A stretch of DNA of 64,000 bases from an uncultured Actinomycetes bacterium (GCA_963723855.1 CAVRSI010000038.1:4282-68281); one strand, 5' to 3'. Positions 2,939-64,000 are shown, numbered from the stretch's first letter. Notes: generated by a model from the sequence alone, not told the origin. A program made the numbers and translations.

Positions 2939-2964
2939 CCAGCGCCCGACCGTAGACTCCGGCG

Positions 2965-4008: not shown

Positions 4009-4011
4009 CGG

Positions 4012-4419: not shown

Positions 4420-4426
4420 GGTCTGT

Positions 4427-7869: not shown

Positions 7870-7901
7870 GGCCGCAGCCTACGGCGACCCGAGGCGTGCG
7901 C

Positions 7902-43229: not shown

Positions 43230-43871
43230 CTACGCGGGAGGCGTCGGCTTCTTCCCCGGCAGCTGATCGACCTCGGTCTCGTCCCAGACCGTGCTGTCCT
43301 TGCCGAGCGACATGACGTTGAACTGGTAGTCGAACACCAGCGAGCCGCCGTAGGTCGCGCCGTACGCCACGAGTCCGCCCGCCAGTACCGAGAGGATCAT
43401 CGTCGGCAGCTGCGCGGCGTGTCGGTCGAACTGCACCAGCCGCAGCGCGATGTCGACGGCGACGATCAGCGTGACCGTGACCATCACGGCCATGTGCCAG
43501 TTCGCGGTCCGCCAGACCTGTGTGTGATGGGCCTGACCCAGCGGTCCGGTCTTGCGGCGCGCCTGCCCCTTCCACCAGTCCCAGAAGCCGGTGGTGGCGG
43601 TCGCCAGCGAGACGAGGCCGCCTGCGATCAGGACGATCGTGCCCGCGACGAAGAAGTCGTGCGCGACCGCGCCCGGCTGCCCGGACGGGTTGCCGCGCGC
43701 GGCCACGTAGGAGACGACGTCCATCGCCGCGACCAGCACGTAGCTGGCGATCGGGATGTCCGTCAGGGGCGGGTGGGTCGGCTTGCCGGCCCACCCGCGG
43801 ATCCCCATGAACCTCCGGCCCTTGAGCGTGATGCCCGGCCGGATCGAGAAGAGCCGATTCCCTCGTGCCAT
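43230..43871 (-). CDS. DUF2231-like integral membrane protein
   Basis: Inner ATG at 43871. [14 protein letters not shown] is followed by four TM segments. Confidence 0.65.
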
Positions 43872-43930
43872 CGACGGAAAGCGTAGTCGCCCGTGACGAA
43901 ACGCGTCGGGTTTCGAACCGGTCCGAGGCT

Positions 43931-44560
43931 CTACGCCAAGGCGTCGAGCCAGCGGTGCCCGGGATGGACGCTCGCCAGCGCGTCCGCCAGCCACGCCCGT
44001 CGTTGCAGGCTCAAGAGCGGCAGGATGCCTGCGAAGTCCGCGTCGTCCTTCGGGCGGGAGTGCTTCGCCTTGAAGAGCAGCACGATCTCCGGCACCAGGT
44101 ACGGGACGCCGTCGGCGGTCGTCCCGATGATCCGCTCGTACGGCAGACGGATGCGCTCGTCACGGCGGCAGATCCACACATCGCCGTCGTGTGGCTCGCG
44201 GAAGACGTCGAGCCGGTAGACGCCGGTGTCCGGCTCGCGGACCCACGTCTGGTGCATGACGTCGAACGCCGTGCTCTCGAGCGGCCACCGGTGTCCCGAG
44301 CCGACGACGTCGAACGCGAACCCGTCCAGCGCCGCACGGATCGCATCGAAGCGCCCGATCGGCACCGCGATCTCAAGATCCTCGTGCTCCCGCGTCGTCT
44401 CGCCGCGGAAGAGGTCGAGCGCCCACCCCGCCGCCACGCACCACGGGACGTCGACGCCGGCGAGCCGCTCCGTGACCTCGACCGGGTGCCACGCGTCCCA
44501 CGGCGGGTCCTCCCCCACCTCGATCCCGCCGGGTGGGAGCTCCTCCTCGGCCGGATCCAC
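43931..44560 (-). CDS. nucleotidyltransferase-fold protein (aminoglycoside 2-double-prime adenylyltransferase-like family)
   Basis: VPWCVAAGWALDLFRGETTREHEDLEIAVP resembles the ANT(2'')-type G-G-W-A-x-D ... D-x-D catalytic core. The substrate cannot be inferred. Confidence 0.6.
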   Translation of the reverse strand: MDPAEEELPPGGIEVGEDPPWDAWHPVEVTERLAGVDVPWCVAAGWALDLFRGETTREHEDLEIAVPIGRFDAIRAALDGFAFDVVGSGHRWPLESTAFDVMHQTWVREPDTGVYRLDVFREPHDGDVWICRRDERIRLPYERIIGTTADGVPYLVPEIVLLFKAKHSRPKDDADFAGILPLLSLQRRAWLADALASVHPGHRWLDALA

Positions 44561-44573
44561 GGGCGAACGTCCG

Positions 44574-44690
44574 TCAGGCTTCGAGCGACGGCTGTTGCGC
44601 GAACTCCTGCCTCACCCGCTGGAGGGCCTTGTAGGCGCTGAAGAGCGCGAGGGCGAGACCGATCAACGCGGTGATCTGTTTGAACGTCAT
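44574..44690 (-). CDS. possible 38-aa single-TM peptide
   Basis: My own translation gives MTFKQITALIGLALALFSAYKALQRVRQEFAQQPSLEA. The SD is weak. It lies between the cyclase gene and the nucleotidyltransferase gene. Confidence 0.2.
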   Translation of the reverse strand: MTFKQITALIGLALALFSAYKALQRVRQEFAQQPSLEA

Positions 44691-44776
44691 GCTCGGATGC
44701 TAGACGGTCCCGCTCGAACCCGACGGCGGGACCTGGCCGACGCGATCGCTGGGGATCCGCCCGACACGCCTTCCGG

Positions 44777-47700
44777 TTACCGGGCTTCGACCTCGGCGAT
44801 GCGAGCGCTGAGTGTGTGCAGACGGACCAGCACACCCTTGCGTTCGAAGAGATCCAGAGCGATATGAAGATGCTCGAGTCCTTCGTCGCGTTCATCCTTC
44901 GCGATCAGGATCTCGCCCAACTCCTGATGCGAAGCACCTTTCTCATAGAGGTAGTCGGTCGTTTCCCCGGCCGCGATCGCCTCCCGCGCGTACGGCTCGG
45001 CTTCGTCGAGGCGTCCCTGCCGTCGCATGATCTTCGCGCGGATACGTCGGATCCCGATCACCGTCACGGCGTCGTCCACGGCCGCCTGCTCCTCGGCTTC
45101 CCTCAGCGTCGTCTCTGCTTCGTCGGGCCGACCCTGCGACACGATCGCGTCGGCGAGATAGATCAACGAAGTGGAGAGGTACCCACGCTCTCCCATGTCA
45201 CGAAGCTGCTCGATGCCTTCCCTCGCTACCCGCTCCGTCTCCGCGTAGCGCTCGAGCAATAGCCCGGCCTCGAGGTATGCATGAGCCGCCGCGAGATGCA
45301 GACGCTCTCCGAGCTCACGGGCGCGCGTCACGGAGATCGAGAACCTCTCGTCCGCGAGGTCGGTCTCACCCCGCATCGCATGAGCGACCGCGAGCGACTG
45401 ACTGAGCTCGTACGAGGAGCTCCCCAGCGTCTCGATCTCCGCGATGAGCTCGCTCGCCCTCGTCACCACCTCATCAGCGGGAACCGGTCCCCAGACGAAT
45501 GGGCCGAGCAATTCGTTGGACGTGATCCGCATGAGCCGCTCGGATCCGGCGCGCTCGGCATGCACGTGCGCACGTTCGAGAGCTTCCAGGGACCCTGCAC
45601 CGTCGCCGAGCCAGAATCGGAACGCGCCTACGACCGCCCACCCCTCGGCTAAACCCAGGTCATCGCCCTCGGCGGCGAGCGGCGCCATCCGGCTCTCGAC
45701 CTCCGCCAATGCCGGCCGCATCGCGAACTCCGGGTCGAGGTGGTTCAGCAGCAAGGTTCGTTGGATCGCGACGCGCGCGACCACCGTGTCGGCGCCTGCA
45801 TCCGCCGCCCGGACGGACGCTCCCTCGAGGAACTCGAGCGCTCGTTCGAGCTGACCGCCGTAATACAGCGCCTGTCCGAGGGACGGCAGCGCCGAGAGGG
45901 CGCGGGGGTCGTCGGCGGGCAGCAGCTCCATCGCGCGGCGCAGGAGCCGTTCGGCTGCCGCGACGTCGCCCCGTCCCAGCGCACGCTCTCCGGCCGCGAG
46001 TAGATGCGTGCCCGCACGGGCGGCGATCGCGCGTCCGGCGTCGTCGACGGGACCGAGCTCTTCCCGGTACCGGTACGACTGCTCGAGGTGATAGCCCACG
46101 AACTCATCCAGCTCCCCAGCTGACCGGGCTTCGCGCCCGAGCCAACCCGCGAACCCCTCGTGCAACGCTGCGCGGAGTTCCTTCGGTATCGCGTCATACA
46201 CGGCATCCCGGACCAGCAGATGCCGGAACCGATACGAGTCTTCTTCGCCGAGGTCTCCACGATCCGGGCGGATCAGGTCCTTCCGAAGGAGGGCCCTGAT
46301 CCCGTCGTTGACCTTGCCGGATTGCTCGTCGCTCACGAGGGATCTGATCGAGGAGCCTGCGAACACCTTTCCGATGATCGCGGCGCACTCCAGTACCACG
46401 CGCTCGATCGGGGCCAATCGGTCGAGCCGGGCCGCGATCAATGCATGGACCGTGGGTGGCACCTTCACTTCCGACAGATCACCGGCAGCGATCCATCGGT
46501 GGTCCTCTCGCACGAGATACCCATCGTCGATCAGCATCGCGACCATCTCTTCGACGAACAGGGGGTTGCCTTCGGCGGCCTCGGCCACGCGCGCCGACAC
46601 CTCGCCGGCGACCTCCGAGTCACCGATCAGATCGGCGACGAGCTCCACCGTCTCGGCTCGCGTCAACGGCTCCAACAGGATCGAGGTCGCGTTCGCGACG
46701 CCGCCACCCCAGCCGGGCCGGTCATCTCGAAGCTCGGGCCGCGCCTGCGCGAGGACCAGGATCGGGGCGTCCCGGGACCACTCGGCGACGTGCTCCACGA
46801 GATCGAGGAACGTCGACTCGGCCCACTGGAGATCGTCGAGGAGCAGGAGGAGCGGTCGATCGGCGGCCAGGATCTCGAGGAATCGCCGCAGCGCCCAGAA
46901 CGATTCCTCGACAGGCGCTTGCGTCTCCGAGAGGCCGACGAGGCACGCCACGAGGTCGGCGACACGCTCCGAGCGCTCTCCCGGCCCGATCACGTCGAGC
47001 AGTTTCCTCTGCGCGTCCCCGGGATGGTCCAGGATCGAGAGCCCGGCCGCTTGACCCACGAGCTCGACGACCGGCCAGAACGTGATGCCTTCGCCGTAGG
47101 CGAGGCATCGTCCACGGAGGACGGTCGCGTCCGCATCGACCTGGGCGGCGAACTCCTCCACCAGCCGCGTCTTTCCGGCACCTGCCGTTCCCACGATCGT
47201 GAAGAGCTGACAGGCGCGATCCGTCGTTACGCGCTCGAACGCTTGTCCGAGCAGCGCCAACTCGCGGTCACGACCGACCATCGGCGCGTCCAGTCGGCGG
47301 GTGTGTCCGACGGCACCGGCCGTGACGTCCTCGAGTCGATACGCGGAGATCGGCTCCGCCTTCCCTTTCGCCGCGATCGGATCCGCCGGCTCCGCCCTGA
47401 CCGCGTCGCGTGTCAGGCGATAGGTCTCTTCACCGATCAGGATCTCGCCAGGAGCGGCCGCCTGCTCCAAGCGGGCTGCGGTGTTGACGGCATCCCCGGT
47501 CACGAGCGCTTGCCCGGTCGTTGGATCGCCCGCGACGACCTCGCCGGTGTTCACGCCGATCCTCGAGGCGAGCGTGACGCCGTGATCGCGCTCCAGCTCC
47601 TTGTTGAGGTCGAGCAACCCCTCTCGCATCTCCACCGCAGCCCTGGCCGCGCGCAGAGCGTCGTCCTCGTGCACATGAGGGATCCCGAACACTGCCATCA

Positions 47701-47968
47701 CCGCATCCCCGATGAACTTCTCCACGGTGCCGCCGTGATGCTCGATCGCGATCTTCATGGTGTCGAAGTAGCGAGTCATCACGCGCCGGAGGGCCTCCGG
47801 GTCGAGCAGTTCGCCAAGCGCCGTCGAGCCGGTGACATCACAGAAGACGACGGTGACGGACTTGCGGACCTCGTGGCTCCGTGCCGGCTCGGCCAGCGGC
47901 GAGGCGCACGCCATGCAGAAGCGAGCTTCGTCGGGGCTCTCGGCGCCGCAGCTGGGGCAGACCCGCAT
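44777..47968 (-). CDS. zinc-ribbon / class III adenylate-guanylate cyclase / AAA(STAND) ATPase / TPR signalling protein
   Basis: Intact 1063-aa ORF. CPSCGAESPDEARFCMAC, FCDVTGST, EKFIGDAVMAVFG, GDAVNTAARLE and Walker A GTAGAGKT are present, followed by a long TPR-like C-terminus. Confidence 0.9.
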   Translation of the reverse strand: MRVCPSCGAESPDEARFCMACASPLAEPARSHEVRKSVTVVFCDVTGSTALGELLDPEALRRVMTRYFDTMKIAIEHHGGTVEKFIGDAVMAVFGIPHVHEDDALRAARAAVEMREGLLDLNKELERDHGVTLASRIGVNTGEVVAGDPTTGQALVTGDAVNTAARLEQAAAPGEILIGEETYRLTRDAVRAEPADPIAAKGKAEPISAYRLEDVTAGAVGHTRRLDAPMVGRDRELALLGQAFERVTTDRACQLFTIVGTAGAGKTRLVEEFAAQVDADATVLRGRCLAYGEGITFWPVVELVGQAAGLSILDHPGDAQRKLLDVIGPGERSERVADLVACLVGLSETQAPVEESFWALRRFLEILAADRPLLLLLDDLQWAESTFLDLVEHVAEWSRDAPILVLAQARPELRDDRPGWGGGVANATSILLEPLTRAETVELVADLIGDSEVAGEVSARVAEAAEGNPLFVEEMVAMLIDDGYLVREDHRWIAAGDLSEVKVPPTVHALIAARLDRLAPIERVVLECAAIIGKVFAGSSIRSLVSDEQSGKVNDGIRALLRKDLIRPDRGDLGEEDSYRFRHLLVRDAVYDAIPKELRAALHEGFAGWLGREARSAGELDEFVGYHLEQSYRYREELGPVDDAGRAIAARAGTHLLAAGERALGRGDVAAAERLLRRAMELLPADDPRALSALPSLGQALYYGGQLERALEFLEGASVRAADAGADTVVARVAIQRTLLLNHLDPEFAMRPALAEVESRMAPLAAEGDDLGLAEGWAVVGAFRFWLGDGAGSLEALERAHVHAERAGSERLMRITSNELLGPFVWGPVPADEVVTRASELIAEIETLGSSSYELSQSLAVAHAMRGETDLADERFSISVTRARELGERLHLAAAHAYLEAGLLLERYAETERVAREGIEQLRDMGERGYLSTSLIYLADAIVSQGRPDEAETTLREAEEQAAVDDAVTVIGIRRIRAKIMRRQGRLDEAEPYAREAIAAGETTDYLYEKGASHQELGEILIAKDERDEGLEHLHIALDLFERKGVLVRLHTLSARIAEVEAR

Positions 47969-47977
47969 GCCGCGAGT

Positions 47978-49370
47978 CTAGGCCGGGCCGAGCTGGGCGA
48001 GCGCGTCGTACGCGGCGTACTTGAAGGTCTCGCCGAGCGTCGGGTGGTTGAAGACCATCTCGATGAACGTCTCGACCGTGCCGTTCAACACGATGATCGC
48101 CTGCCCCACGTGCACGAGCTCGGACGCGCGTTCGCCGATGCAGTGGCAGCCGATCAGCCGGCGCGACCAACGGTCGAACACGAGCTTCACCATGCCGTCG
48201 CGGTCGTTCATGATCTGTCCGCGGACGTTGTCGCGGTAGAAGGCTCGCCCCGCCACCACGTCGAGCCCCCGGCGCGCCGCCTCCTCCTCACTCAGGCCGA
48301 CGCAGCTCACCTCCGGGATCGTGTACACGCCGTACGGCAGGACGTCGGACACCTGCCGTTTGTACGTGAACCCGAACGCGTGGCACACCGCGACCCGGCC
48401 CTGCTCCATGGAGACGCTCGCGAGCGCGGGGAAGCCGACGACGTCACCGGCCGCGTAGATGCTCGGGACCGCGGTGCGGAAGTCCTCGTCGACCTTGACG
48501 TTTCCTCGCGCGTCCACCTCGACCCCGATCGAGGCGAGCCCGAGGCCATCGGTGTTGCCCTGACGGCCGGCCGCCACCATCACCGTCTCCACCACGAGCG
48601 GCTCGCCCGTCGAGAGCGTGCACGTCGAGTCCATCGGCTCCACGCACGACGTGCTCGAACGTCCGCTCCAGGTGGAGGGTGACACCGAGCGCCCGCATCG
48701 CGTCCGCGAGCCGCTCGCCCATCTCGAGATCGAGGAACGGGAGCAGGCCGGGGCGCGGGTCGATCAGATGCACCTGCACGCCGAGCGCCGCGAACATGCA
48801 CGCGTACTCGCAACCGATGACGCCGCCGCCGATCACCGCCATCGACCGCGGGAGCCGATGGATGCGAAGGATCCCGTCGGCGTCGTGGACGTCGTCGTCG
48901 CCGTAGGGGATGCCGGGCGGGCGGTACGGAGACGACCCGGTCGCGATCAGGACCACCGCGGCGTGGACCTGCATCACGCCGTCCGACGACGTCACCTCGA
49001 CGGTATGCGCATCCACGAGCCGTCCCTCGCCCCGCAGCAGATCGATCCCGTGCCGTTCCAGGTTCGTGTGGATCCGATCGACCTCCAGGTGGCGGACCGC
49101 GTCCTTGCGATCGAGGAGCCTCGTGACCGTGAGCTCCGGATCAAGGTCGACCAACACGCCGTCGAGCTGCCGCTGTCGGTAGCCCGACAGGAACAGCGCG
49201 GTCTCGCGCAGCGTCTTGGAGGGCAGCGTGCCCGTGTGGACGGCGGCGCCCCCGGGCTCGGGTTGCCGTTCGACGATCGCGACGCGCTTGCCGAAATAGG
49301 CGGCCTGCGCGGCGCCCCGCTCTCCGGCGGGACCGCCGCCGATCACCACCAGGTCGTACTCGCCGCTCAC
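47978..49370 (-). pseudogene. sthA: Si-specific NAD(P)+ transhydrogenase SthA-like flavoprotein, one frame break
   Basis: GTG at 49370 overlaps the upstream stop (GTGA). YDLVVIGGGPAGERGAAQAAYFGKRVAIVE...GGAAVHTGTLPSKTLRE has no redox-active CxxxxC. After ...LERTFEHVV the text continues in ORF 47978..48685 (VEPMDSTCTL...IYAAGDV...HPTLGE). The break lies near 48643. Confidence 0.8.
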
Positions 49371-50101
49371 TCCCAGTCGACCGTCACGATCTCGATCGGC
49401 TCGGACGTGCCCCGCAGGGTCACGGTCCGTGGCTCCGAGATGGGATAGCGGCCGTCCGCGGCGGTGGCCCGGCTCGCCACGATCTGGTCGCCGTCCGCGA
49501 GCGCGGCGATCCGCGCGGCTTCGTGAACGCCCTTGCCCGAGAAGTCCCGCCCGACCTGCGTGGCGCCCGACGCGTGCAGCCCGATCCGCACCTTCGGCGC
49601 GAAGCCCGCCGAGCGCCGGTGCTCGGTTAGCCGGCGCTGGATCGCGACGGCGCACGCGAGCGCCTCATCCGGGGAGTCGAACCCCACGAAGAACCCGTCG
49701 CCTGTAGAGACGACCTCCTCGCCCTTGTGCTCGGCGAACAGCGACCGCAGCGCTTCGTTGTGCCACCGAAGCACGCCCTGCCAGACCTCGTCGCCGAGCG
49801 CGTCGACCAGGTTGGTCGAGCTCTCGATGTCGGTGAACATGAACGTCTTCTCGACGCGACGGGGGCCCTCCTTGCCGCGGAGCTGCCACGGCAGCAGCTC
49901 CTCGACGTCCTCGATCGTGATCGCACCGGTCGGACAGGCCAGCGCGGCCTCCCGCAGCACCTCGTCGTCGACGCTCGCCGCATCCACCACGCCGGCCTTC
50001 GCGAAGTCGCCCTTGTACCAGTCGAACGCGGTGGGCGCGATCGTGATGCACGTCCCGGCGCCGACGCACCGGTGCCGGTCCACCCGCGGCCGGAGCGTCA
50101 T
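49367..50101 (-). CDS. ferredoxin (CxxAxxC...CP, 3Fe-4S-type) fused to a class III nucleotidyl-cyclase domain
   Basis: Inner ATG at 50101. The N-terminus reads VDRHRCVGAGTCITIAPTAF...ACPTGAITIE. The cyclase domain reads KTFMFTDIESST...VVSTGDGFFVGF...GKGVHEAARIA. Confidence 0.8.
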   Translation of the reverse strand: MTLRPRVDRHRCVGAGTCITIAPTAFDWYKGDFAKAGVVDAASVDDEVLREAALACPTGAITIEDVEELLPWQLRGKEGPRRVEKTFMFTDIESSTNLVDALGDEVWQGVLRWHNEALRSLFAEHKGEEVVSTGDGFFVGFDSPDEALACAVAIQRRLTEHRRSAGFAPKVRIGLHASGATQVGRDFSGKGVHEAARIAALADGDQIVASRATAADGRYPISEPRTVTLRGTSEPIEIVTVDWE

Positions 50102-50117
50102 CGGTGCACCCGCGCGT

Positions 50118-53100
50118 TCACAGGACCCGCTCCCGGAACGCGAACGCGGTGGCGTCCGCGCGCGACGACGCGCCGATCGACGCGAAGAGCTGACCGAGCC
50201 GTCGCTCGACGGCCGGCTCGTCGATCCCGAGCTCGCCGGCGATCTCGGCGTTCGTCTTGCCCTGGACGAGGCTCTGCAGCAGCAGCGAATCGCCGTCGGC
50301 GGGCGCACCGCCGTCGCCGCCGGACGCCGTGATCGCGTCGATGGGCCCGGCGAGCGCGACCATCTCGCTGCCGAGCGGTCCCCGGAGCCAGCGGACCCGC
50401 ACGTCCTCGTCGATCGTGCGCTGCGCGACCATGGCGAGCGAGACCTGGACGTACGGGCGCACGCCCTCCTCCCACTCGGGAGCGCCGGTCTCCATCAGGA
50501 CCCGCGCGCACGGCAGCAGGACCTCGAGGTGCAGGTCCTCGTGCATCGCGGCCTGGAGCGCGCCCGCCGCGCCGCGTGCGAACGTCATCGCTTCCTCGGC
50601 CTGGCCGCGGGCGAGTGCGACGCTCGCCCGCGCTGCGTCGGCCTGCGCGCCCCACGGGGAGTGGCCGGGGAGCGTCGCGGACAGCTCCGACGCCTCCATC
50701 GCCGACCGGTCGGCCAACGCCATCAGCTCCTCGTCGCCGAGCCGCACCCCCAGCCGCGCGGACTCGATCGCGAGGCGAGCGAGCGCCTCGCATCGTGCGG
50801 CGGGCAGGCCCGAGTCGGTCGCCTGCTGCACGGCACGCTCCAGATGTGTGCGCAAACCTGCGGCATCGCCCGCCGCTCCATCCGCGATCCCCCTCCAGGT
50901 CTCCAGCCGGCGCGCGCGGAGCGGACTCGGATGCTCGGTGGCGACCATGGCGGCGCGATCGATCCATGCCCGTGCCTCGTCGACATCGCCGAGGTCGAGG
51001 ACGGCCATCGCGGTCCCTCCGGCAGCCAGGAACTCGAGGTTCGGATCGCCGATCTCCTTCGCGTACCGGTGGGCCTCCCGCCCCTTCGCGAGCGCCAGGT
51101 CGGGGATCACCTTCGCACGCCCGAACACGTGCGAGCCGTAAAGCATCTGCGCCTCGAACGCCGCGCGCTCGCTCTCGTTCGTGAACGCCTTCATCCGGGA
51201 GGTGAGCCGGCGGATCTCCTCGATGTGCCGGGCCGCGCTCGTACCGAAGTGGATGTCGGCAGCCCAGTTCAGGTAGGCGAGCGCGATGATCGTGGACATC
51301 GCGCCGCGCCGGTCCCCGAGCTGGTCGAAGAGCTCGAGCGCATGGTGGAGGAGCCCGAACGTCTCCATGAACACCGGCGCGATCGGCAGCTCCGGCATGA
51401 TGTCCTCCAGGACCTCGCCCGCCGCCACTCGTTGCACGAGCGGCAGGTGCAGGCCGAGCTCGAGCTGCTCGATGAACCAGGCGCGAACCCGGCCGAGCTG
51501 GATGACCCCGAGCTCACGGCTGGCGGCCGCCTCGGCGCCCACGTCGCCGAGCTCGTGCGCCAGCTCCTTCGCGCGACGGAACGCCTCGTCGCACGCATCC
51601 AGGTCGACCTCTTTCGCCGCCGGGGTGTAGGACTCGCCCGCCGTCGCATGCATGACGTCCTGACCGAGCTCCATGCAGGCGGCGAGCTCGCCCTCGCGGT
51701 CGCCCCGCTCCACGGCCATATCCCGCACCTCGCGCGCGAGCTCTGCCGCGCGATCGTGTTCCTCGGCGGTCCGCATGGCCGCCGCTCGGCGCAGCCGCAC
51801 GTCGATCCCCAGGCGCGTGTCGCCGAGCGCCTCGGCCAGCGCGGCCAGCTCGGCGAGCCCCTGCATCCGGTCCCCCGGCCGCCGCAGCATGTCGAGCGCC
51901 CGGTCACGCGCGTCGAGGAGCCCCACGCGCTGCTCCGGCGTCGAGGCCGATGGCAGCGCCAGCTCGACCACGCGCAAGACCTCCTCCGGCGCGTTGGCGG
52001 CGAGCGCGTTCCGGCTCGCCTCGACCGAGAACCGGACGCACACGGCCCCGTCCCCCGCCGACTTCGCGTGACGGGCGATCAGGGGCAGGCTGGCGGCCGA
52101 GGGCTCGCCGGACATCAGCAGCGCGACGATCGCCGCATGGATCGCCCGGCGCGCGGCCGACGTGAGCGTCGCGGCCGCGAACTCGCGGACCTGCTCGTGC
52201 TGGAAGCTGTAGTCGGCGGCCGAGGCCTCCTCGTGCTCGATCAACAGCCCCGCCGTGACGGCCGGCGCCAGGGTCTCGGCGAGCTCCTCCGGCTCGGGCG
52301 CCGACCCGTCCACGCGGAGCTGGATCTCCCGCAGGTCCTTCAGGCTGAACCGCCTGCCCAGGATCGCCGCGACGGCCAGCAACGCCTTCGTCGGCTCGGG
52401 CAGCTTCGTCGCCCGCCGCGAGATCAGCGTCTTCACCGCGGACGGCACCAGCCGCTCGGCGTTGCCGGCCAGCGTCCAGACACCGTCGATCTCCTGGATC
52501 ATCCCGTTCTCGCGGTAGGTGAACGCCATCTCCTCGACGATGAACGGGACGCCTTCGGCCTGCGCGTGCATGACCGCCGCGCCGGACGCGTCGACCGGAC
52601 CGCCGAGCACCTGCGCCAGGAACTCGCGCGTCGCCGCCGGCGAGAAGCGTTCGAGCTTCAGGCGGCGGACGACGCCCATGCGGCCCATGTCGGCGACCAG
52701 GTTCACGGCCTCGTTGACGACCGCGAACTCCTCGGGACGGATCGCGAACATCAGGAAGATCGGGCTCGCGCCGTCGGTTCGGATCACGTAGCGCAACAGA
52801 CGGAGGCTGTCCTCGTCCGACCACTGGAGGTCGTCGACGAGGATCGCGAGCGGCCGCTCGGCGGCGAGGGCACGGAACGCGACCGCGCCCAGATCGAACG
52901 TCCGGAGCAGCCGGCTGTCGGGAGCGAGCGTGGCGAGCCCGGGGTCGTCCTGGCCCGACATCGAGTCCAGGCATCGGGCGATCGCCTCGGCGGCCTGGGG
53001 GCCGGCCGCACTGAAGGCCTCGGGCGAACCGAGGATCGAGCGGGCGACCAGGAACGGGCCGCGGAGCTCCTCGTCGGCCGTGACGGCGATCGCGGTGAAG

Positions 53101-53378
53101 CCGTCGGCCGTCGCCCGCTCGGCCGCGGCGACGAGCAGCCGCGTCTTGCCGATCCCGGGCTCACCCTCCACGGTGAGACCGACGAGCCGGCCGGCGCCGG
53201 CCGTCGCGAGCTCCTGGGCGATCGACTGGAGCTCGGCCGATCTCCCGACCACGTCGCCGGTCGCCCGGTGAACGTCGAGTGCCATCGGCGAGAACGGCAG
53301 CGGTTGGTCGTCGTCCGTGATCACGTGGTCTCCGGAAGGTCGGGATGTGAGGGTAGCCCGGACCCGGCGCTCCGGCAC
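50118..53378 (-). CDS. LAL-type (large ATP-binding) LuxR family transcriptional regulator
   Basis: 1086-aa ORF with Walker A GEPGIGKTRLL, a long TPR-like middle and a C-terminal LuxR HTH (GKTNAEIAGELGIDEPAVERRLGQLFASIG). An alternative start is ATG 53285 (MALDVHR). Confidence 0.85.
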   Translation of the reverse strand: MPERRVRATLTSRPSGDHVITDDDQPLPFSPMALDVHRATGDVVGRSAELQSIAQELATAGAGRLVGLTVEGEPGIGKTRLLVAAAERATADGFTAIAVTADEELRGPFLVARSILGSPEAFSAAGPQAAEAIARCLDSMSGQDDPGLATLAPDSRLLRTFDLGAVAFRALAAERPLAILVDDLQWSDEDSLRLLRYVIRTDGASPIFLMFAIRPEEFAVVNEAVNLVADMGRMGVVRRLKLERFSPAATREFLAQVLGGPVDASGAAVMHAQAEGVPFIVEEMAFTYRENGMIQEIDGVWTLAGNAERLVPSAVKTLISRRATKLPEPTKALLAVAAILGRRFSLKDLREIQLRVDGSAPEPEELAETLAPAVTAGLLIEHEEASAADYSFQHEQVREFAAATLTSAARRAIHAAIVALLMSGEPSAASLPLIARHAKSAGDGAVCVRFSVEASRNALAANAPEEVLRVVELALPSASTPEQRVGLLDARDRALDMLRRPGDRMQGLAELAALAEALGDTRLGIDVRLRRAAAMRTAEEHDRAAELAREVRDMAVERGDREGELAACMELGQDVMHATAGESYTPAAKEVDLDACDEAFRRAKELAHELGDVGAEAAASRELGVIQLGRVRAWFIEQLELGLHLPLVQRVAAGEVLEDIMPELPIAPVFMETFGLLHHALELFDQLGDRRGAMSTIIALAYLNWAADIHFGTSAARHIEEIRRLTSRMKAFTNESERAAFEAQMLYGSHVFGRAKVIPDLALAKGREAHRYAKEIGDPNLEFLAAGGTAMAVLDLGDVDEARAWIDRAAMVATEHPSPLRARRLETWRGIADGAAGDAAGLRTHLERAVQQATDSGLPAARCEALARLAIESARLGVRLGDEELMALADRSAMEASELSATLPGHSPWGAQADAARASVALARGQAEEAMTFARGAAGALQAAMHEDLHLEVLLPCARVLMETGAPEWEEGVRPYVQVSLAMVAQRTIDEDVRVRWLRGPLGSEMVALAGPIDAITASGGDGGAPADGDSLLLQSLVQGKTNAEIAGELGIDEPAVERRLGQLFASIGASSRADATAFAFRERVL

Positions 53379-53391
53379 CCTCCGAGCTGGA

Positions 53392-54435
53392 TCACACGAG
53401 GATGCAGGCTGCCCGGTGCGGCTCGCCCATCGCGTTGCCCACCTTGTGGAGCTGAGGGTCCGTCAACGTGCAGCGGTCTTCCGCCAGCGGGCAGCGGGGG
53501 TGGAACCGGCAGCCGGCGGGGATGTCGATCGGGTTCGGGGTCTCACCCAGCAGGATCCGGGGCTCGGTGCGATCGCGTGGATCGCGCTTGGGCACCACTG
53601 ACATCAACGCCTTCGTGTAGGGATGCTCGGGATCGCGGACGACCTCGCGCGCAGCGCCTTCCTCGACGATCCGTCCCAGGTACATCACCGCGATGCGGTC
53701 GGCGAAGTGCGCGGCGGTCGACAGGTCGTGCGTGATCATCAGGATCCCCATGTCGCCGTCGCGGCGCAGCCGGTCGAGCAGCGTCAGGATCCCCGCGCGC
53801 ACCGACACGTCGAGCATGGACACCGGCTCGTCGGCGAGCAGCAGCTTCGGCTCGAGCACCAAGCTCGCGGCGATCGCCACACGTTGCCGCTGGCCGCCCG
53901 AGAGCTCGTGCGGATACCGGTCGATGAACAGATCCGCCGGAGACAGCTCCACCCGCTCGAGCGCCTCGACGACCAACTGCTCGCGCTCCCGCCTCGAGCC
54001 GCCGATGCCGTGGATCACCATGGGCTCCTCGACCGCTCGCCGAACCCGGAACCGGGGGTCGAGCGACTCGTAGGGGTCCTGGTAGACCATCTGCATCGAG
54101 CGGCGGACGGCGCGAAGGTCCGCGCCGGTCAGGCCGGTGATGTCCCGCCCGTCCACTTCGATCGTGCCGGACGTCGGCTCGACCATCCGCAGGATCGCCT
54201 GGGCCGTCGACGTCTTCCCGCAGCCGGACTCCCCCACGACGGCGAGCATCTCGCCGGCTCGGACCGAGAGTGAGACGCCGTCGACGGCCCGCACCCACGC
54301 GCGCGGCACCCGGCGCACCGCGTCCGACATGGTGCGTCGCACGGAGTATCGGACGACCAGATCGCGAACGTCGAGCAGCGCGCCACCCGCGCGATCCGGC
54401 GCGGACGCGGGTGCGGCGACCGTGGCGTCGCTCAT
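53392..54435 (-). CDS. peptide/nickel (Opp/Dpp-type) ABC transporter ATP-binding protein (F-type)
   Basis: GESGCGKTS, LSGGQRQRVAIA and LLADEPVSMLD are the ABC motifs. The C-terminal oligopeptide-type extension has CRFHPRCP. Confidence 0.85.
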   Translation of the reverse strand: MSDATVAAPASAPDRAGGALLDVRDLVVRYSVRRTMSDAVRRVPRAWVRAVDGVSLSVRAGEMLAVVGESGCGKTSTAQAILRMVEPTSGTIEVDGRDITGLTGADLRAVRRSMQMVYQDPYESLDPRFRVRRAVEEPMVIHGIGGSRREREQLVVEALERVELSPADLFIDRYPHELSGGQRQRVAIAASLVLEPKLLLADEPVSMLDVSVRAGILTLLDRLRRDGDMGILMITHDLSTAAHFADRIAVMYLGRIVEEGAAREVVRDPEHPYTKALMSVVPKRDPRDRTEPRILLGETPNPIDIPAGCRFHPRCPLAEDRCTLTDPQLHKVGNAMGEPHRAACILV

Positions 54436-55427
54436 CCTGCCCGCTCCGCCTCGGGCACGGGACCGTCCACTGCATCGGTGTCGTTCAGATGGCAGGCGGC
54501 CTCATGCGACCGGGCCACGGAGATCAGCTCGGGCGCCTCGACCTTGCAGCGATCGAAGGCACGGTCGCAACGAGGCTCGAACGGACAGCCGACGATCGGG
54601 CGATCGAGGCGTGGCGGTGCCCCGGGGATCGACACGACGTCGACGTCGCCGGTCAGGTCGGGCGTGGCCTCGAACAGCAGCCGTGTGTACGGATGCCGGG
54701 GGTCGTGGAAGAGCGTGTCGACCGGACCGGCTTCGGCGACACGGCCCGCGTACATCACCACCGCGCGCTCACAGACCTGCGTGACGAGCGGCAGGTCGTG
54801 CGTGACCAGGATCAGCGCGAGACCCAGGTCGACCGTGAGCGACTCCAGCAGCTGGAGGATCTGCGCCTGCACCATCACGTCCAACGCCGTGGTGGGCTCA
54901 TCGGCCAGCAGCACCTTGGGGTTGCACGCCAGGGCCATCGCGATCGCCGCACGCTGACGCATGCCTCCGGAGAACTCATGCGGGTACCGCGCCGCTCCGG
55001 ACGCGGGGATCCCGACCAGCTGGAGGAGGTCGCCGGCTTGCTTCTTGGCTGCGGCGCCGCTCGCGGTCCCGTGGAACTCCATCGGTTCGACGATCTGCGA
55101 ACCGATCGTCCTGACCGGGTTGAGCGCGTTCATCGCCCCCTGGAAGATCATCGCGATGTCGGTCCACCGGTACGGACGCATCGAATCCTCCCCGCCCGCC
55201 AGGATGTCGGTCCCGTTGACCGAGACGCTCCCGGCGACCTCCGCGTTCGGCGGCAGGAGCCCCATCAGGGCCAGCAGCGCCGTCGTCTTGCCGCACCCGG
55301 ACTCACCGACCAAGCCGAGCCGTTCGCCCTCCTCTAGGTCGAAGCGCACCCCCTGCACCGCATGGAGCCGGCCGCCGTGCGGCAGGTCGAACCAGACCTG
55401 GAGATCCCGCACCGACAGCAGGCTCAC
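54432..55427 (-). CDS. peptide/nickel (Opp/Dpp-type) ABC transporter ATP-binding protein (D-type)
   Basis: This is the last 331 codons of the artefactual ORF 54432..58994. GTG at 55427 overlaps the permease stop (GTGA). GESGCGKTT, FSGGMRQRAAIA and LLADEPTTALD are present. Confidence 0.85.
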   Translation of the reverse strand: MSLLSVRDLQVWFDLPHGGRLHAVQGVRFDLEEGERLGLVGESGCGKTTALLALMGLLPPNAEVAGSVSVNGTDILAGGEDSMRPYRWTDIAMIFQGAMNALNPVRTIGSQIVEPMEFHGTASGAAAKKQAGDLLQLVGIPASGAARYPHEFSGGMRQRAAIAMALACNPKVLLADEPTTALDVMVQAQILQLLESLTVDLGLALILVTHDLPLVTQVCERAVVMYAGRVAEAGPVDTLFHDPRHPYTRLLFEATPDLTGDVDVVSIPGAPPRLDRPIVGCPFEPRCDRAFDRCKVEAPELISVARSHEAACHLNDTDAVDGPVPEAERAG

Positions 55428-56387
55428 GGGCTGGGTGCCTCGGCCCTCGTCGGGGCGGTGGCACGGAAGCGCCAGCTGTGGATGGACAGGTGCGCGACGC
55501 GCAGGCGCGGGTTGAGCGCGTCCTCGATCGCCTGACCCATCAGGTAACAGCCGATGACGACAAGTCCGATCGAGAGACCGGGAGGCACGAACGCCCACCA
55601 CGCGCCCTGGGTCATCGCCGTGCGTTCGAAGGCGTGCTCGAGCATCGTCCCCCACGAGATGCCGGGCACGCCGACGCCGAGGAAGGCCAGCGCCGACTCG
55701 TCGAAGATCGCGTACGCGATCGTGAGGACCGTCGTCGCGATCAGCAGCGGCGCCACCTGGGGCAGGACGTGTTGCGCGACGATCCGCCGATGGCTCGCGC
55801 CGAGCGATCGCGCCCGCTTCACATAGACGCGCTCGCGGATGCTCTTCACCTGGGCACGCACGATGCGCGCCGTCGTGGTCCACAAGAGCAGACCGATCAC
55901 CAGGATCACGTGCGACAGGCTCGGACCGAACACGGTCGCGACGACGATCATCAGCACCAGGTCGGGGATGACCAGGAAGTAGTCGGTGATCCGCATCAGC
56001 GCCACGTCGGTCCCGCCGCCGCGGTAGCCGGCGAGCAGTCCGATGCCGCCGCCGACGAGCATCGCCACGAGCGCGGCCGCGAACCCGACGATCATCGACG
56101 TCCGGCCTCCGTACATCAGCTCGCTCAACACGTCGACCCCGCTGTCGTCGGTGCCGAGCCAGTGTTGCGCCGAGGGCGGCGCGTAGACCGGGACCCGATT
56201 GCCGCGTCGGGCTGTACGGGGCCAGGGCCGGGCCGAAGATCGCCATCGCGACGAAGAACCCCACGATGAACAGCCCGAGCAACGCGGACCGGCGCTCGCG
56301 CAGGACCTGGAGGACGGGGTTGCCGCCCTTCGACGGCCGCGCCTCCAACGCCGTGTCCTCGGCGAGCGCCGGATCGACGGTCTTCAT
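55424..56387 (-). pseudogene. Opp/Dpp-type ABC permease (C-type), one frame break
   Basis: ATG at 56387 overlaps the upstream stop (ATGA). MKTVDPALAED...LGLFIVGFFVAMAIFGPALAPYSP is followed by PVYAPPSAQHWLGTDDSGVDVLSELMYGGR... in ORF 55424..56131. The break lies near 56190 (GGG/CCC runs). Confidence 0.8.
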
Positions 56388-59613: not shown

Positions 59614-61770
59614 CTAGTCCGGTTCAGGATGGAACGCGACCGCGGGGATCCGGCCGGTGACCGACGTGCCTTCGCCCGGTGCCGACCGGATCTCGAGCAC
59701 GCCGCCGATCGCCTCGACCCGGTCCGCCATCCCTCGCAGGCCCGTTCCGTAGCTCGTCCGGGCGCTGTCGAAGCCCGCGCCGTCGTCGGAGACCTCGAAC
59801 GTGAGATCGCCGTTCGTCTGCGCCAGTCGCACCTGGGCGCCGCTCGCTCCCGAGTACTTCGCCACGTTGTTGAGCGCCTCGAGCGCGCAGAAGTAGACCG
59901 CCGCCTCCACCTGCTGCGGGTACCGCGCGACGTTCTCCGCCTCCACCGATGTGGCGACCGAACCCTTGCGCGCCTGCGCCTCCAGCGCCGCGACCAATCC
60001 CTTGTCCGCGAGGAGCGGCGGGTAGATCCCGCGGGCGAGGTCGCGGAGGTCCTCGATCGCCTGCGTCGTCTCCGTCTGGAGGTCGGCGAGCATCGACTTC
60101 GTCTTCTCGGAGTCGCGGTCGACGAGCCCTTCGGCGAGTCGGAGCTTCACGGACAGGGCGACCAACTGCTGCTGCGCGCCGTCGTGCAGGTTCCGTTCGA
60201 GCTTGCGCCGCTCCTCGTCCTGCGCGTGCACGAGCCGTTGGCGCGACGCGCGGAGCTGTTCGATATGGTCCATCAGCTGCTCGGTCAACGCGACGTTCCG
60301 CATCACCAGCCCAGCTTGCCCTGCCAGGTCGCGGACGAGCTTGTCCTCCGTGGGAGTGATCGACTCCCCGGGCCGCTTCACGATCGACAGCGCACCGAGC
60401 AGCTCGCCCTGGTGCCGGATCGGCTCGCGCATCTCGGTCGCGGACACCTCGCCGGCGTCGTCGTCGGTCGCGGCGATCGGCGGGAGCGCCTCGGCGTCCT
60501 GCGGCCACCGGCCCTCGGAGACGAGCTGGTCCCCGATGCGGACCCACACGTCGGCGCGGACCGCTCCGGTGCCTCCGGCGAGCGCGCGCGCCATCCGCGG
60601 CAGCAGGTCCTCGTTCGCGTACGCGTTGCCGAGCCGCTCGGAGAACTCCGACAGCACCTCGTACGGGGCGGCGCGTTCCCCGTAGACCAGCCGGTCGGCG
60701 AACCGCTGGGCACGCCTGCGAACCGGCTGGAACGCCAGCGCGACGATCGCAGCCGCCGCGGCCGACAGGATCGGATCCGCGCGGCTCCCGACCAGCGCAC
60801 CCACGCCGACGACGATCGCGACGTACACGACGGTGATGAAGACCGCGAGCGCGCCGACCAGCAGCGCGCGGTTGATCACGACGTCGATGTCGAACAGGTG
60901 GTATCGCAGCACCGATACGCCGATCGCGATGGGGATCAAACCGAAGGAGAAGACGGCGATGTTCTGGAGGAGCGTCATCCAGGCCGGTTGATCGTTCGCG
61001 GCCCACGCGCCGGTGAACCCGATCAGGAGAGCGACGGTGTACAGGATCGCCACGATCGACGCCGCGGTCACCAGCCATCGCAGCTGGAGCCGCTCGATCC
61101 CTGCGGATCGGCGGTACCGCTGCACCAGCGCGACGAGCGATCCGATCACCCCGATGGGGAGGATGGCGAGGCTCGCGACCGCGACCGTGAGCACGGGGCG
61201 CAGCGACTCGATGCCGAGCGGGTTCCGATAGTCCGCGAAGGCGGCGACATCTGCGCCGAACTTCCCGGGGGTCAGCACGATGGTCAGGAAGACGACCACC
61301 AGGCTGGCGGCAACGATCCGTGCGAACCATCGCCACCGCGGAGACGGGAGATGTCCGTCCGGGAACAGCAGGAGCAGGAACGTCACGGGCAGCGCCACGA
61401 CCGGCACCCACATCGGATTGTTCAACGACACCGCGATGAGCCCGGCCTCGCGACCGCCGACGCCCCCGTGCACGGCGTAGCCGCCGTACGACCCGAGGAA
61501 GGCGCCGAGCCCGATCGCCGCCCCGATCCCGAGCATGAGCCAGCTGAGCGAGTTGTCCGGGCGACGGGTCGCCATCAGGTACCCGACGAACGGGAACAAT
61601 GCGAAGGCCAGCAAGAGCCCCATATCGGTGGGCTCCCGGTCGACGGTGGAGAGCCACAGGCCGGCGGCGGTCGACACGATCGTGAACCCGGTGATGACGC
61701 GCGCCAGCAGGATCAAACGCCTGCGGCGCGCGGCCGGCATGGCCTCAGCTCCGTCGGTCCGATCCACCAT
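59614..61770 (-). CDS. sensor histidine kinase (polytopic membrane N-terminus, GAF-like, HisKA_3, HATPase_c)
   Basis: 718-aa ORF with about 10 TM segments in the first ~330 aa. AQDEERRKLERNLHDGAQQQLVALSV is the NarL-type H-box. NNVAKYSGA ... DDGAGF ... GTGLRGMADR are the N/G boxes. An alternative start is ATG 61740. Confidence 0.85.
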   Translation of the reverse strand: MVDRTDGAEAMPAARRRRLILLARVITGFTIVSTAAGLWLSTVDREPTDMGLLLAFALFPFVGYLMATRRPDNSLSWLMLGIGAAIGLGAFLGSYGGYAVHGGVGGREAGLIAVSLNNPMWVPVVALPVTFLLLLFPDGHLPSPRWRWFARIVAASLVVVFLTIVLTPGKFGADVAAFADYRNPLGIESLRPVLTVAVASLAILPIGVIGSLVALVQRYRRSAGIERLQLRWLVTAASIVAILYTVALLIGFTGAWAANDQPAWMTLLQNIAVFSFGLIPIAIGVSVLRYHLFDIDVVINRALLVGALAVFITVVYVAIVVGVGALVGSRADPILSAAAAAIVALAFQPVRRRAQRFADRLVYGERAAPYEVLSEFSERLGNAYANEDLLPRMARALAGGTGAVRADVWVRIGDQLVSEGRWPQDAEALPPIAATDDDAGEVSATEMREPIRHQGELLGALSIVKRPGESITPTEDKLVRDLAGQAGLVMRNVALTEQLMDHIEQLRASRQRLVHAQDEERRKLERNLHDGAQQQLVALSVKLRLAEGLVDRDSEKTKSMLADLQTETTQAIEDLRDLARGIYPPLLADKGLVAALEAQARKGSVATSVEAENVARYPQQVEAAVYFCALEALNNVAKYSGASGAQVRLAQTNGDLTFEVSDDGAGFDSARTSYGTGLRGMADRVEAIGGVLEIRSAPGEGTSVTGRIPAVAFHPEPD

Positions 61771-61939: not shown

Positions 61940-64000
61940 TTGGCCGAGGTGCGACGATCCGAGCGGGTGCTGGCCTCGGTCACCGCCGGCGTGTTGATCG
62001 GCGTCGTCGAGGTCGTCCTCGCGATCTCGTTCGCCGCTCTGGTGTACGGCGGCTACCTGGCGCAGTTCCTGCCGGACGGCATCGGCCTGTTCCTGGTGGC
62101 AGCCGCGATCTCGCTCGCGATCCTCGCGTGGAGGTCGGGCTCTCGCGGCGTGGTGGGCGGCGTGCAAGCCGCGGTGGTCGCCGTGCTCGCCATCGTCGCC
62201 ACGACCACCGCGCAGCACACGTTCGGGAGCTCCAACCGGGCCTTCGTCACCGTCGTCGCGGCGACCATGGTCGTGACGATCCTGACGGGCATCACGTTCC
62301 TGGTGATGGGCACGTTCAAGCGCGGCAACCTGATCCGGTTCGTCCCGTATCCGGTCGTCGGCGGCTTCCTCGCCGGTACCGGATGGCTCCTCCTGAAGGG
62401 CGGCCTGTACGTCGCCTCGGGCGTGGAGGTGCACCTCGGCACGTTCGGATCCATGGCGGAGCGGGAGACGCTCACGCACTGGCTCCCCGCCCTCGTGTTC
62501 GGCGTGATCATGTTCCTCGCCGTCCGGCTGGTGAAGGCGCCGCTGGTCATCCCGATCGTGCTCGCGGCCGGGCTCGCGCTGTTCGCGATCGGCATGCTCG
62601 TGACCGGCTCCTCGATCGACGATGCGCGAACGGGCCTCTGGATGGTCGGACCGTACCGATCCGGTTGGCTCTTCCAGCCGTGGACCTACCGCGCCCTCAC
62701 CGACTGCCGACTGGTGGGCGGTGCTCGGGCAGGCCGCAGGCATCGCCACCGTGATGCTCGTCGCCGTGATCGGGGTCCTGTTCAACGTCAGTGGCACCGA
62801 GCTCGTGCTGCGCCGCGACCTCGACACGGATGAAGAGCTCCGCAACGCCGGTCTCCTCAACGTCGTCTCCGGCGCGTTCGGCGGTGTCCCGGGGTATCAC
62901 TCGCTGAGCATGACGGCCCTCGCGGAGCGCATGAACGTCAACGCGCGGGCCGCGGGACTCATCGCTGCGCTCGTCCCGCTCGCCGCCCTCGTGTTCGGCG
63001 CGGCCATGATCGAGCTGATCCCGCGCGTGATCGTCGGGGGCGTGCTGGTCTTCCTCGGCGCTGTCGTTCATCGTCGATTGGGTTTGGGACAAGCGGAGGA
63101 CGCTCCCGAAGGTCGAGTACGTCGTCGTCCTGGTGATCCTGGCGGGGATCATCGTCAAGGGGTTCCTCCCCGGCGTGGTGATCGGCTTGATCATGGCCGT
63201 CGTCCTGTTCGCGGTCAGCTACGGGCGGATCGAACTGGTGCACGAGGTCGCGTTCGGCGACGTCCTCCGCAGCAACGTCGACCGCCCGCCCACCGAACGA
63301 GCCGCCTTGCGGACGATGGGCGAGCGGGTGCAGATCCTGCGCGTGCGCGGGTTCGTGTTCTTCGGATCGGCCAGCGGCCTGCTCGAGCGGATCCACGAGC
63401 GGGTGGAGACGGCACCTCCGCGATGCCTGCTGATGGACCTCCGGCAGGTGACGGGCGTGGACGCCTCGGCGGTGATGTCCTTCGTCAAGGTGATCAACCT
63501 GGCGGAGACGAACGGGTTCGAGCTCGTGCTCGCGGGCGCCTCGGATCCGGTGCGCCGGCAGCTCGAACGAGGCGGCGTGGTCACCTCCGAAGGGGTCGTC
63601 CGGTTCGAGCAGGATCTGGATCACGGCCTCCAGCGGTGCGAGGACGTCATCCTTGCGGAGGGCCAGGCCGAGCGGCGTCTCGGACGATCAGGGCGACGCG
63701 CTCGACGGGATGCCGCCGGGCCTTCGCGCCTACCTCGAGCGCGTGGCGCTCGAGGAGGGAGCCGTGCTGATCCGCCAGGACGAGCCGCCCGGCGACGTGT
63801 TCGTGCTGGAGTCGGGCCGGCTCCGCGTGGAGATGGTGACGCAGGAGGGCACGCGGATGCGATTGCGCACGGTGCGTCCGGGCGTCGTGGTCGGCGAGAT
63901 CGCGATGTACTCCGGCGTGTCGCGCACGGCGGACGTGGTGGCCGAGACGCCGAGCGTGGTGCTGCGGCTCAGCCGTGCGTCGATCGAGCGGATGGAGGCC
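61940..64000 (+). pseudogene. SulP-family anion transporter fused to STAS and cyclic-nucleotide-binding domains; three frame breaks; 3' end beyond window
   Basis: TTG start at 61940 follows GAAGGGGG. The TM core is split between ORF 61940..62833 and ORF 62622..63770, with a break near 62700. LSFIVDWVWDKRR...ILRVRGFVFFGSASGL...LMDLRQVTGVDASAV (STAS) is in a third phase, with a break near 63060. GAVLIRQDEPPGDVFVLESGRLRV...VVGEIAMYSGVSRTADVVA (cNMP-binding) follows a break near 63675. The frame is still open at 64000. Confidence 0.8.

Follow-up and report, generated by a model that had tools for sequence, protein, structure and literature searches.

Do the four closely packed minus-strand genes at positions 44777 to 53378 of a 64,000-nt stretch of DNA (~70% G+C; below, the window) from an uncultured Actinomycetes bacterium make up one signaling system? 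They encode a LAL-family regulator, a ferredoxin fused to a cyclase homology domain (Fd-CHD), an SthA-type transhydrogenase, and a large protein with a zinc ribbon, a second cyclase domain, and STAND and TPR regions. An earlier note on this DNA had proposed that all four act together. Pfam bore out the four reading frames and their domains, and the spacings reported there were correct: a 16-nt gap between LAL and Fd-CHD, a GTGA overlap of Fd-CHD with sthA (49367-49370), and a 9-nt gap between sthA and the large cyclase gene. Judged by synteny, the four-gene block is a mosaic: LAL and Fd-CHD are a conserved pair, sthA is an optional accessory, and the large cyclase gene is a paralog that was inserted recently.

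The pair was identified by comparing 83 related loci from ~80 species-level genomes, against which the window proteins were run with tblastn. A LAL ortholog lies directly upstream of Fd-CHD on the same strand in all 82 informative loci (51-97% identity); the remaining locus, which has no upstream DNA, was left out of this count. The distance from the LAL stop to the Fd-CHD start is -4 to +22 nt in 81 of the 82. The best 80 loci all come from metagenome-assembled genomes (MAGs), mostly labeled Actinomycetota, with some Chloroflexota/Dehalococcoidia, Gaiellaceae, Solirubrobacterales, or Nitriliruptorales. In the database at large, we found 2,673 relatives of Fd-CHD, and 450 species-level genomes encode one; the best 120 of the 2,673 are 238-252 amino acids long (one 383-amino-acid miscall aside), share 82-99% identity, and have the same two domains. 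Adjacency in relatives, which the earlier note had set as a check on its proposal, is thus kept by LAL and Fd-CHD, while all four genes stand together only in the window and in loci L004 and L005.

The pair also has an upstream element of its own. In about 20 of 25 diverse loci with differing upstream genes, the DNA 5' of LAL has a non-coding block in common, GGCTACCCTC, and after it come a ribosome-binding site (RBS) of the GGAG type and a GTG codon. The window has a promoter-like element here (Table 1), with -35-like and -10-like hexamers separated by a 17-nt spacer; the actinobacterial -10 pattern is TANNNT, which TACCCT fits. We conclude that LAL and Fd-CHD form a translationally coupled, strictly conserved two-gene unit with its own promoter-like element. 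A k-mer search 5' of LAL produced no convincing palindromic operator, and the GGCTACCCTC block was the only non-coding motif; the top k-mer motif, TTCTCGCCGATG, was rejected as a regulator binding site because it codes for a conserved FSPM peptide. A scan of positions 43800-53700 for E. coli-type promoters returned none, and we deem that consensus uninformative at ~70% G+C. Two terminator-like sites were found in the same interval, as expected from shuffled sequence, both on the plus strand.

This element also bears on where LAL begins. The GTG from which the earlier note started the gene falls inside the -35-like hexamer, and the GTG at 53324 is the more likely start. An alternative start at Met32 (ATG 53285) was rejected because many orthologs have Leu in place of this Met and the peptide encoded 5' of it is conserved; the N-terminal peptide PLPFSPMALDVHR is conserved. 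With 1,068-1,086 amino acids, the protein falls within the ~900-1,100 typical of the LAL family, and it has the family's N-terminal P-loop ATPase (AAA_16 STAND ATPase, E = 4e-17), with Walker A and Walker B motifs, and C-terminal LuxR helix-turn-helix (HTH) domain (GerE, 25.5 bits against a cutoff of 23.5). Between the two lies a long helical region; the ~800 amino acids in the middle of the protein have no domain assignment. No TPR family, TPR_MalT included, matched LAL in Pfam at an E value of 0.01, and a PDB sequence search with LAL gave no matches.

The ferredoxin part of Fd-CHD matches PF13370 (Fer4_13; 34.6 bits against 24.5) and aligns with the single-cluster ferredoxins of Thermotoga maritima, Pyrococcus furiosus, and Desulfovibrio africanus in the PDB. 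It has a CxxAxxC...CP motif, an instance of the CxxXxxC...CP pattern, in which Ala15 occupies the position of the second ligand (Cys in the T. maritima ferredoxin, Asp14 in that of P. furiosus). C12, A15, C18, C56, and P57 are invariant in an alignment of 79 orthologs. Three Cys ligands and an invariant Ala15 therefore lead us to predict a three-Cys, [3Fe-4S]-type site. A linker, EELLPWQLRG, with an invariant LPWQ core in these orthologs, joins the ferredoxin to the cyclase domain. Overall, 71 residues are invariant, with 68-98% identity across phyla, a pattern that points to strong purifying selection, the Cys ligands, the linker, and the metal and phosphate residues all being constrained.

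The cyclase domain matches PF00211 (Guanylate_cyc) with 33 bits, above the gathering score of 21.9, and its best PDB relatives in a search with the family profile are Ma1120 (E = 7e-27) and Rv1900c (E = 9e-22). The metal-binding D91 and D135 and the arginines R172 and R197 are invariant in the 79 orthologs, and among the 150 representative clusters of the CHD subtype that are closest to Fd-CHD, at least 145 keep the Asp pair and the Arg residues. His193, in the column of the canonical transition-state Asn, is also invariant in the orthologs, and 133 of the 150 clusters have His there; Rv1900c and Fd-CHD share a VHxxAR motif in the alignment. In the column of the substrate-specifying Lys, Fd-CHD has Val131, a position that varies across the subtype, and the substrate Asp column holds Asn in 56 orthologs and Asp in 22. 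Fd-CHD thus lacks the canonical transition-state Asn and the canonical substrate Lys/Asp pair. These non-canonical Lys and Asn columns lower the likelihood that Fd-CHD is catalytic and are still compatible with catalysis.

Fusions found elsewhere connect this cyclase subtype with regulators. A profile search of 1.84 billion representative proteins, clustered at 50% identity, returned the full Fd-plus-CHD architecture in two or three clusters. The cyclase subtype by itself was found, at 180-230 bits, at the C terminus of many multidomain proteins, and nearly all members of the subtype show the Asp, Asp, Arg, His, Arg pattern. According to Pfam, these carriers include AAA_16-GerE-CHD proteins, some with TPR (P0128, 1,158 amino acids; P0194, 1,220 amino acids), AAA_16-TPR-CHD and protein kinase-STAND-CHD proteins, a large group of MalT-like TPR-CHD proteins of ~650 amino acids, and BTAD/SARP-CHD and BTAD-AAA_16-CHD proteins. 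Among the 88 closest clusters, TPR_12 occurs in 27, TPR_MalT in 19, AAA_16 in 14, GerE in 8, and BTAD in 7. The subtype is thus systematically tied to STAND, TPR, and HTH regulators, and these fusions argue for a functional link between LAL and Fd-CHD. Their domain order, regulator and then cyclase, is the gene order of the pair, which resembles a LAL-CHD protein divided into two genes, with a ferredoxin added ahead of the cyclase domain. Proteins P0126-P0269 form a large, apparently undescribed set of regulators with a C-terminal His-type CHD, one of them a protoglobin-CHD protein.

The explanation that we consider best, with a probability of about 55%, is a two-gene operon in which an Fe-S cluster gates a cyclase that works with LAL. 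The promoter-like block would drive LAL and the translationally coupled Fd-CHD; the redox state or integrity of the cluster would act through the linker on CHD dimerization or activity; and the cyclase domain would act with LAL, either by binding it or by way of the nucleotide that it makes. In this manner, LuxR-dependent transcription, probably together with a cyclic-nucleotide signal, could respond to electrons, oxygen, or iron. In a minority of lineages, that of the window included, the linked SthA might set the redox state of the ferredoxin from the NAD(P)H pool. More tentatively, LAL and Fd-CHD may be a widespread and so far undescribed Fe-S sensing module of uncultured soil Actinomycetota and Chloroflexota, in which a [3Fe-4S] or [4Fe-4S] cluster would report redox state, oxygen, nitric oxide, or iron by gating a soluble class III cyclase complexed with the STAND-LuxR protein, and SthA would in some lineages connect the NAD(P)H pool to the sensor. 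The cluster type, catalysis, the interaction with LAL, and the role of SthA are parts that we infer. The earlier note had read the locus as a redox input coupled to cyclic-nucleotide production and LuxR-dependent transcription; that chain, which we likewise infer, agrees with the conserved pair and, for some lineages, with the linked SthA, while the four-gene system and the cooperation of two cyclases are not supported.

Several observations weigh against the gated two-gene operon. The window LAL is 25-28% identical to the LAL parts of the fusions, and because of this the fusion argument applies to domain families, not to orthologs. Val131 and His193 could mean that Fd-CHD is weakly active, uses another nucleotide, or is non-catalytic. 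SthA is missing near the module in ~85% of the loci and so is not essential to it. All members of the module come from MAGs, and several of the assemblies have frameshift errors. Finally, the AlphaFold2 monomer of Fd-CHD lends no support to domain contacts: with an alignment too shallow (22 sequences), the mean predicted local distance difference test score (pLDDT) was 53.8 and the ferredoxin domain was unmodeled, and the model was not used.

Table 1. Positions of the module, its parts, and other features in the window
Feature	Position	Strand	Domains or basis
LAL regulator, longest open reading frame	50118-53378	minus	Pfam AAA_16 + GerE/LuxR
LAL regulator, preferred start (1,068 amino acids from GTG 53324)	50118-53324	minus	
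LAL RBS, GGAG, ahead of GTG 53324	53330-53333		
LAL Walker A, GEPGIGKT	53142-53165		
LAL Walker B, ILVDDLQW	52821-52844		
Promoter-like element	53350-53378	minus	between oppF stop (53392) and LAL start
-35-like hexamer, GTGCCG	53373-53378		
-10-like hexamer, TACCCT	53350-53355		
Fd-CHD, ferredoxin-cyclase fusion, 244 amino acids	49367-50101	minus	Pfam Fer4_13 + Guanylate_cyc
Fd-CHD Cys ligand C12	50066-50068	minus	alignment to single-cluster ferredoxins
Fd-CHD Cys ligand C18	50048-50050	minus	alignment to single-cluster ferredoxins
Fd-CHD Cys ligand C56	49934-49936	minus	alignment to single-cluster ferredoxins
sthA-type transhydrogenase gene, split over two frames	47978-49370	minus	Pfam Pyr_redox_2 + Pyr_redox_dim
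sthA, first piece	49370-48618		tblastn
sthA, second piece	48616-47981		tblastn
Zinc-ribbon cyclase-STAND-TPR protein, 1,063 amino acids	44777-47968	minus	Pfam zinc ribbon + Guanylate_cyc + AAA_16 + TPR
Second zinc-ribbon cyclase-STAND paralog	~4427-7878	minus	zinc ribbon + cyclase + AAA_16
oppC	55424-56383		N-terminal domain + permease domain
Histidine kinase	59614-61770	minus	GAF + HisKA_3
SulP transporter gene	61940-64000		Pfam Sulfate_transp + STAS + cNMP_binding

The third gene of the block can be identified as a transhydrogenase, as the earlier note had it, although its frame is broken in the window. The gene spans 1,393 nt, not a multiple of three, and is divided between two frames by a 1-nt insertion at ~48627-48630, where the window reads GATGGACTCGACG and loci L003, L004, L005, and L007, in which sthA is intact, read GATGG-GTTGACG and similar. 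Other window genes are likewise broken: the SulP gene is scattered over three frames, the two domains of oppC lie in different frames, and the second cyclase-STAND paralog is in three pieces (~5834-7869). With at least four apparently frameshifted genes, the window suggests an error-prone long-read assembly, and in sister assemblies the LAL gene is fragmented at other sites. Because of these shared defects, the sthA frameshift is more likely a sequencing or assembly error than a true pseudogene. After frame repair, the protein scores 536 bits with the NCBIfam SthA equivalog model NF003585, above the 465 bits required; its N-terminal motif, GGAAVHTGTLPSK, reads as lacking a CxxxxC redox disulfide. 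A 383-amino-acid protein, P0012, joins Fd-CHD residues 1-220 (99% identity) to the start of SthA, and this is probably a frameshift or gene-calling artifact in a sister assembly.

Is SthA part of the module? Of the 83 loci, 13 have a gene for it no farther than 10 kb from Fd-CHD, in at least five arrangements: on the same strand, overlapping Fd-CHD or just 3' of it (the window clade and L037); directly upstream of LAL (L006) or 6.7 kb upstream (L013); and convergent (L033, L058, and L076). We estimate that a single-copy gene would fall within 10 kb by chance in ~0.5% of genomes of 3-5 Mb. For a single-copy gene, the linkage is by this estimate far above chance and is still a minority feature. 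A competing view, somewhat less probable than not in our judgment, is that the SthA beside the module is a housekeeping transhydrogenase, linked to it by chance and exchanging no electrons with the ferredoxin domain. Its score as a standard SthA equivalog agrees with this, as do its absence near most of the loci and its lack of a fixed position or orientation. Against chance, the linkage recurs in at least four separate clades of a tree of 79 Fd-CHD sequences, one of them from a Chloroflexota genome; SthA is the only recurrent neighbor among 66 non-redundant loci; and in the window clade its start codon overlaps the Fd-CHD stop (GTGA). We read SthA as an optional accessory of the module, and its linkage would agree with an input from NAD(P)H to the ferredoxin in the minority of genomes that have it.

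The main competing view concerns the cyclase domain itself. Fd-CHD may make no cyclic nucleotide, its CHD being a dimerization or docking module and its Fe-S domain switching LAL directly, by analogy a redox co-regulator acting as MalK, MalY, and Aes do on MalT; we hold this possible and on balance unlikely. It would explain why the substrate Lys is Val and the canonical Asn is His, and it accords with the attachment of this CHD subtype mostly to transcription regulators instead of classical sensor domains. Strict one-to-one pairing and translational coupling would suit a stoichiometric complex, and for similar reasons M. tuberculosis Mclx2 and Mclx3 have been proposed to be regulators, not cyclases (PMC4452763). 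Had catalysis been lost, however, both Asp and both Arg residues would not be expected to stay invariant among the 79 orthologs and near-universal in the 150 clusters. Nor need the missing Asn be decisive: in Rv1900c, the residues in question (N342/H402) are reportedly dispensable for activity when the His and Asn are substituted. Ma1120 has Ala in the Asn column and yet is an active adenylyl cyclase (PMC4215837).

The fourth gene is where the proposed four-gene system breaks down. The large cyclase gene is found 3' of sthA in the window and, at 92-95% nucleotide identity, in the collinear loci L004 and L005, but nowhere else; L002, L003, and L007, which are equally close relatives, lack window positions 44717-47977, a clean 3.26-kb block comprising the gene, 9 nt upstream, and ~60 nt downstream. 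Its G+C content at third codon positions is 0.81, against 0.92-0.94 for its neighbors. The window has a paralog at ~5834-7869 with 42-46% identity, and similar cyclase domains occur around the Fd-CHD loci at 1 per 62 kb, the background density of the window. The large cyclase gene is thus, by distribution and composition, a recent lineage-specific paralog insertion unrelated to the conserved module. Its CHD, which is similar to those of CyaB and Cya2, has all of the canonical residues (D, K, D, N, and R). A hairpin 3' of the gene was considered as an operon terminator and dropped, since its folding energy is like that of shuffled sequence (z = -0.63). The paralog near the start of the window is a second gene with zinc ribbon, cyclase, and AAA_16 domains, and such genes are multicopy in the genome.

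A system in which SthA and the Fe-S domain supply the redox input, two cyclases cooperate, possibly as a heterodimer, and two STAND proteins give the output is very improbable and, on synteny, largely refuted: in the window, L004, and L005 the genes follow one another on a single strand, 16, -4, and 9 nt apart, and may be co-transcribed there, Fd-CHD keeps its metal Asp residues, and the large cyclase has the full residue set, but the large gene is removed by an indel in equally close relatives, is absent at that position from all other loci, and differs in base composition, SthA is absent from most loci, and the conserved module has a single cyclase domain. Since the large gene is lost by indel in close relatives and its paralogs occur at background density, the two-cyclase heterodimer suggested by the earlier note would lie outside any conserved design.

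Beyond the pair, clustering of open reading frames over the 83 loci revealed no further conserved gene family. A search for a third gene by this clustering and by a Pfam census of downstream neighbors returned generic ABC ATPases and shadow reading frames, apart from SthA (11-13 loci), cyclase-STAND paralogs (7 loci), and small cyclic-nucleotide (cNMP)-binding proteins (7 loci). In the census of the nearest downstream gene of the 66 non-redundant loci, SthA was the sole recurrent family (5 loci). The small stand-alone cNMP-binding protein (~140 amino acids, PF00027) lies 40-46 nt 3' of Fd-CHD in L013 (10775-11275, minus) and L065 (9251-9679, plus), and within 10 kb in five further loci; it could be a receiver for a cyclic-nucleotide product and is too rare to call. 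Directly upstream of LAL, on the same strand, L010 (6151-6714) and L082 (5892-6431) have a second cyclase homology domain; it might belong to a gene of its own or be an N-terminal cyclase as in Mclx proteins. On the complete 3.13-Mb chromosome L001, which has no linked sthA, a 795-amino-acid NAD(P)H-flavin/Fe-S oxidoreductase (DHODB_Fe-S_bind, Fer4_20, and Pyr_redox_2; 2951-5338, minus) is encoded 1.4 kb upstream of LAL and might be an alternative redox partner or a coincidence.

In the window, the block is not set apart from other genes: the LAL start at GTG 53324 is only 67 nt from the end of an Opp/Dpp ABC transporter operon that is encoded upstream, also on the minus strand. L002 (2507-5943) and L003 (1217-5292) have an extra 4.2-kb block between oppF and LAL (window 53392/53378), with Amidohydro_2, amino-acid permease, and glutamine-synthetase-like genes on the opposite strand; it is absent from the window, L004, and L005. 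This block upstream and the large-cyclase indel downstream make both flanks of the module indel hotspots. Farther upstream, the cNMP-binding SulP gene named in the earlier note as a possible receiver is real, with all three domains detected by Pfam. A GAF-containing HisKA_3 histidine kinase gene lies between the Opp operon and SulP and has no evident link to the module.

These findings show how a compact same-strand cluster in one genome can bring together genes of different standing: two conserved partners, an accessory present in some lineages, and a newly inserted paralog. Proteins that combine cyclase domains with STAND and LuxR parts are common in Actinomycetota, the Mclx proteins of M. 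tuberculosis among them; the two-gene form separates the regulator from the cyclase and adds a recognizable Fe-S input, making it a tractable model, and hundreds of uncultured soil species have it. Should its output be under the control of the Fe-S cluster, the pair would represent a new sensory input to class III cyclase signaling and a new redox-responsive transcription switch. It would then be the first soluble Fe-S-regulated class III cyclase and could give a functional explanation for fusions of cyclase domains to STAND regulators, those of mycobacterial Mclx included.

In the open-access full-text literature, we saw no report of a LAL regulator whose partner is a soluble ferredoxin-cyclase, and the nearest known systems each share only part of its design. 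Ma1120 of M. avium and Rv1900c (LipJ) of M. tuberculosis have a similarly non-canonical transition-state column (Ala in Ma1120, His in Rv1900c), and the N-terminal segment IEELADW of Ma1120 aligns with VEELLPW in the Fd-CHD linker. Both lack a ferredoxin domain. In Ma1120 the substrate Lys and Asp are present and there is no sensor domain; Rv1900c has an alpha/beta-hydrolase domain. To our knowledge, there is no paired LAL gene for either.

The membrane-anchored ferredoxin class IIIb cyclases of alpha- and betaproteobacteria, such as Q132R4 of R. palustris, resemble Fd-CHD in having a ferredoxin directly N-terminal to the CHD and in their predicted redox control (PMC4821796). They differ in their six-helix, cytochrome-b-like, haem-binding membrane anchor and class IIIb CHD (PMC4821796), whereas Fd-CHD is soluble, has 244 amino acids and a 3-Cys single-cluster ferredoxin, and is always paired with LAL. 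On the regulator side, MalT and other LAL/STAND activators share the N-terminal P-loop STAND ATPase, the helical sensor region, the LuxR HTH, and a length of ~1,000 amino acids; unlike MalT, the window LAL has no TPR_MalT match, and its obligate partner gene encodes an Fe-S cyclase-domain protein.

Single-chain LAL-, TPR-, and SARP-cyclase fusions, for which we found no published description, come close in design. Six of these (P0128, P0194, P0177, P0129, P0126, and P0161) have the same CHD subtype, at 180-230 bits, with Asp-Asp-Arg-His-Arg and regulator-then-cyclase order; they differ in being one polypeptide with no ferredoxin domain and, as noted above, in their distant LAL parts (25-28% identity). 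Another split, that of Rv0890c/Rv0891c in M. tuberculosis, has been cataloged as a coding sequence that was interrupted, not as two genes designed to pair (PMC2277376). The Mclx proteins (Rv0386, Rv1358, and Rv2488c) likewise join a class III CHD to a LAL-type ATPase and LuxR domain, and some lack canonical cyclase residues; they are single CHD-AAA-TPR-LuxR chains with an N-terminal CHD and no Fe-S domain (PMC4452763, PMC3466318). The pair described here is not of the Mclx type: in all 82 loci its CHD, of the Rv1900c/Ma1120-like subtype, is encoded together with a ferredoxin in a separate gene 3' of LAL.

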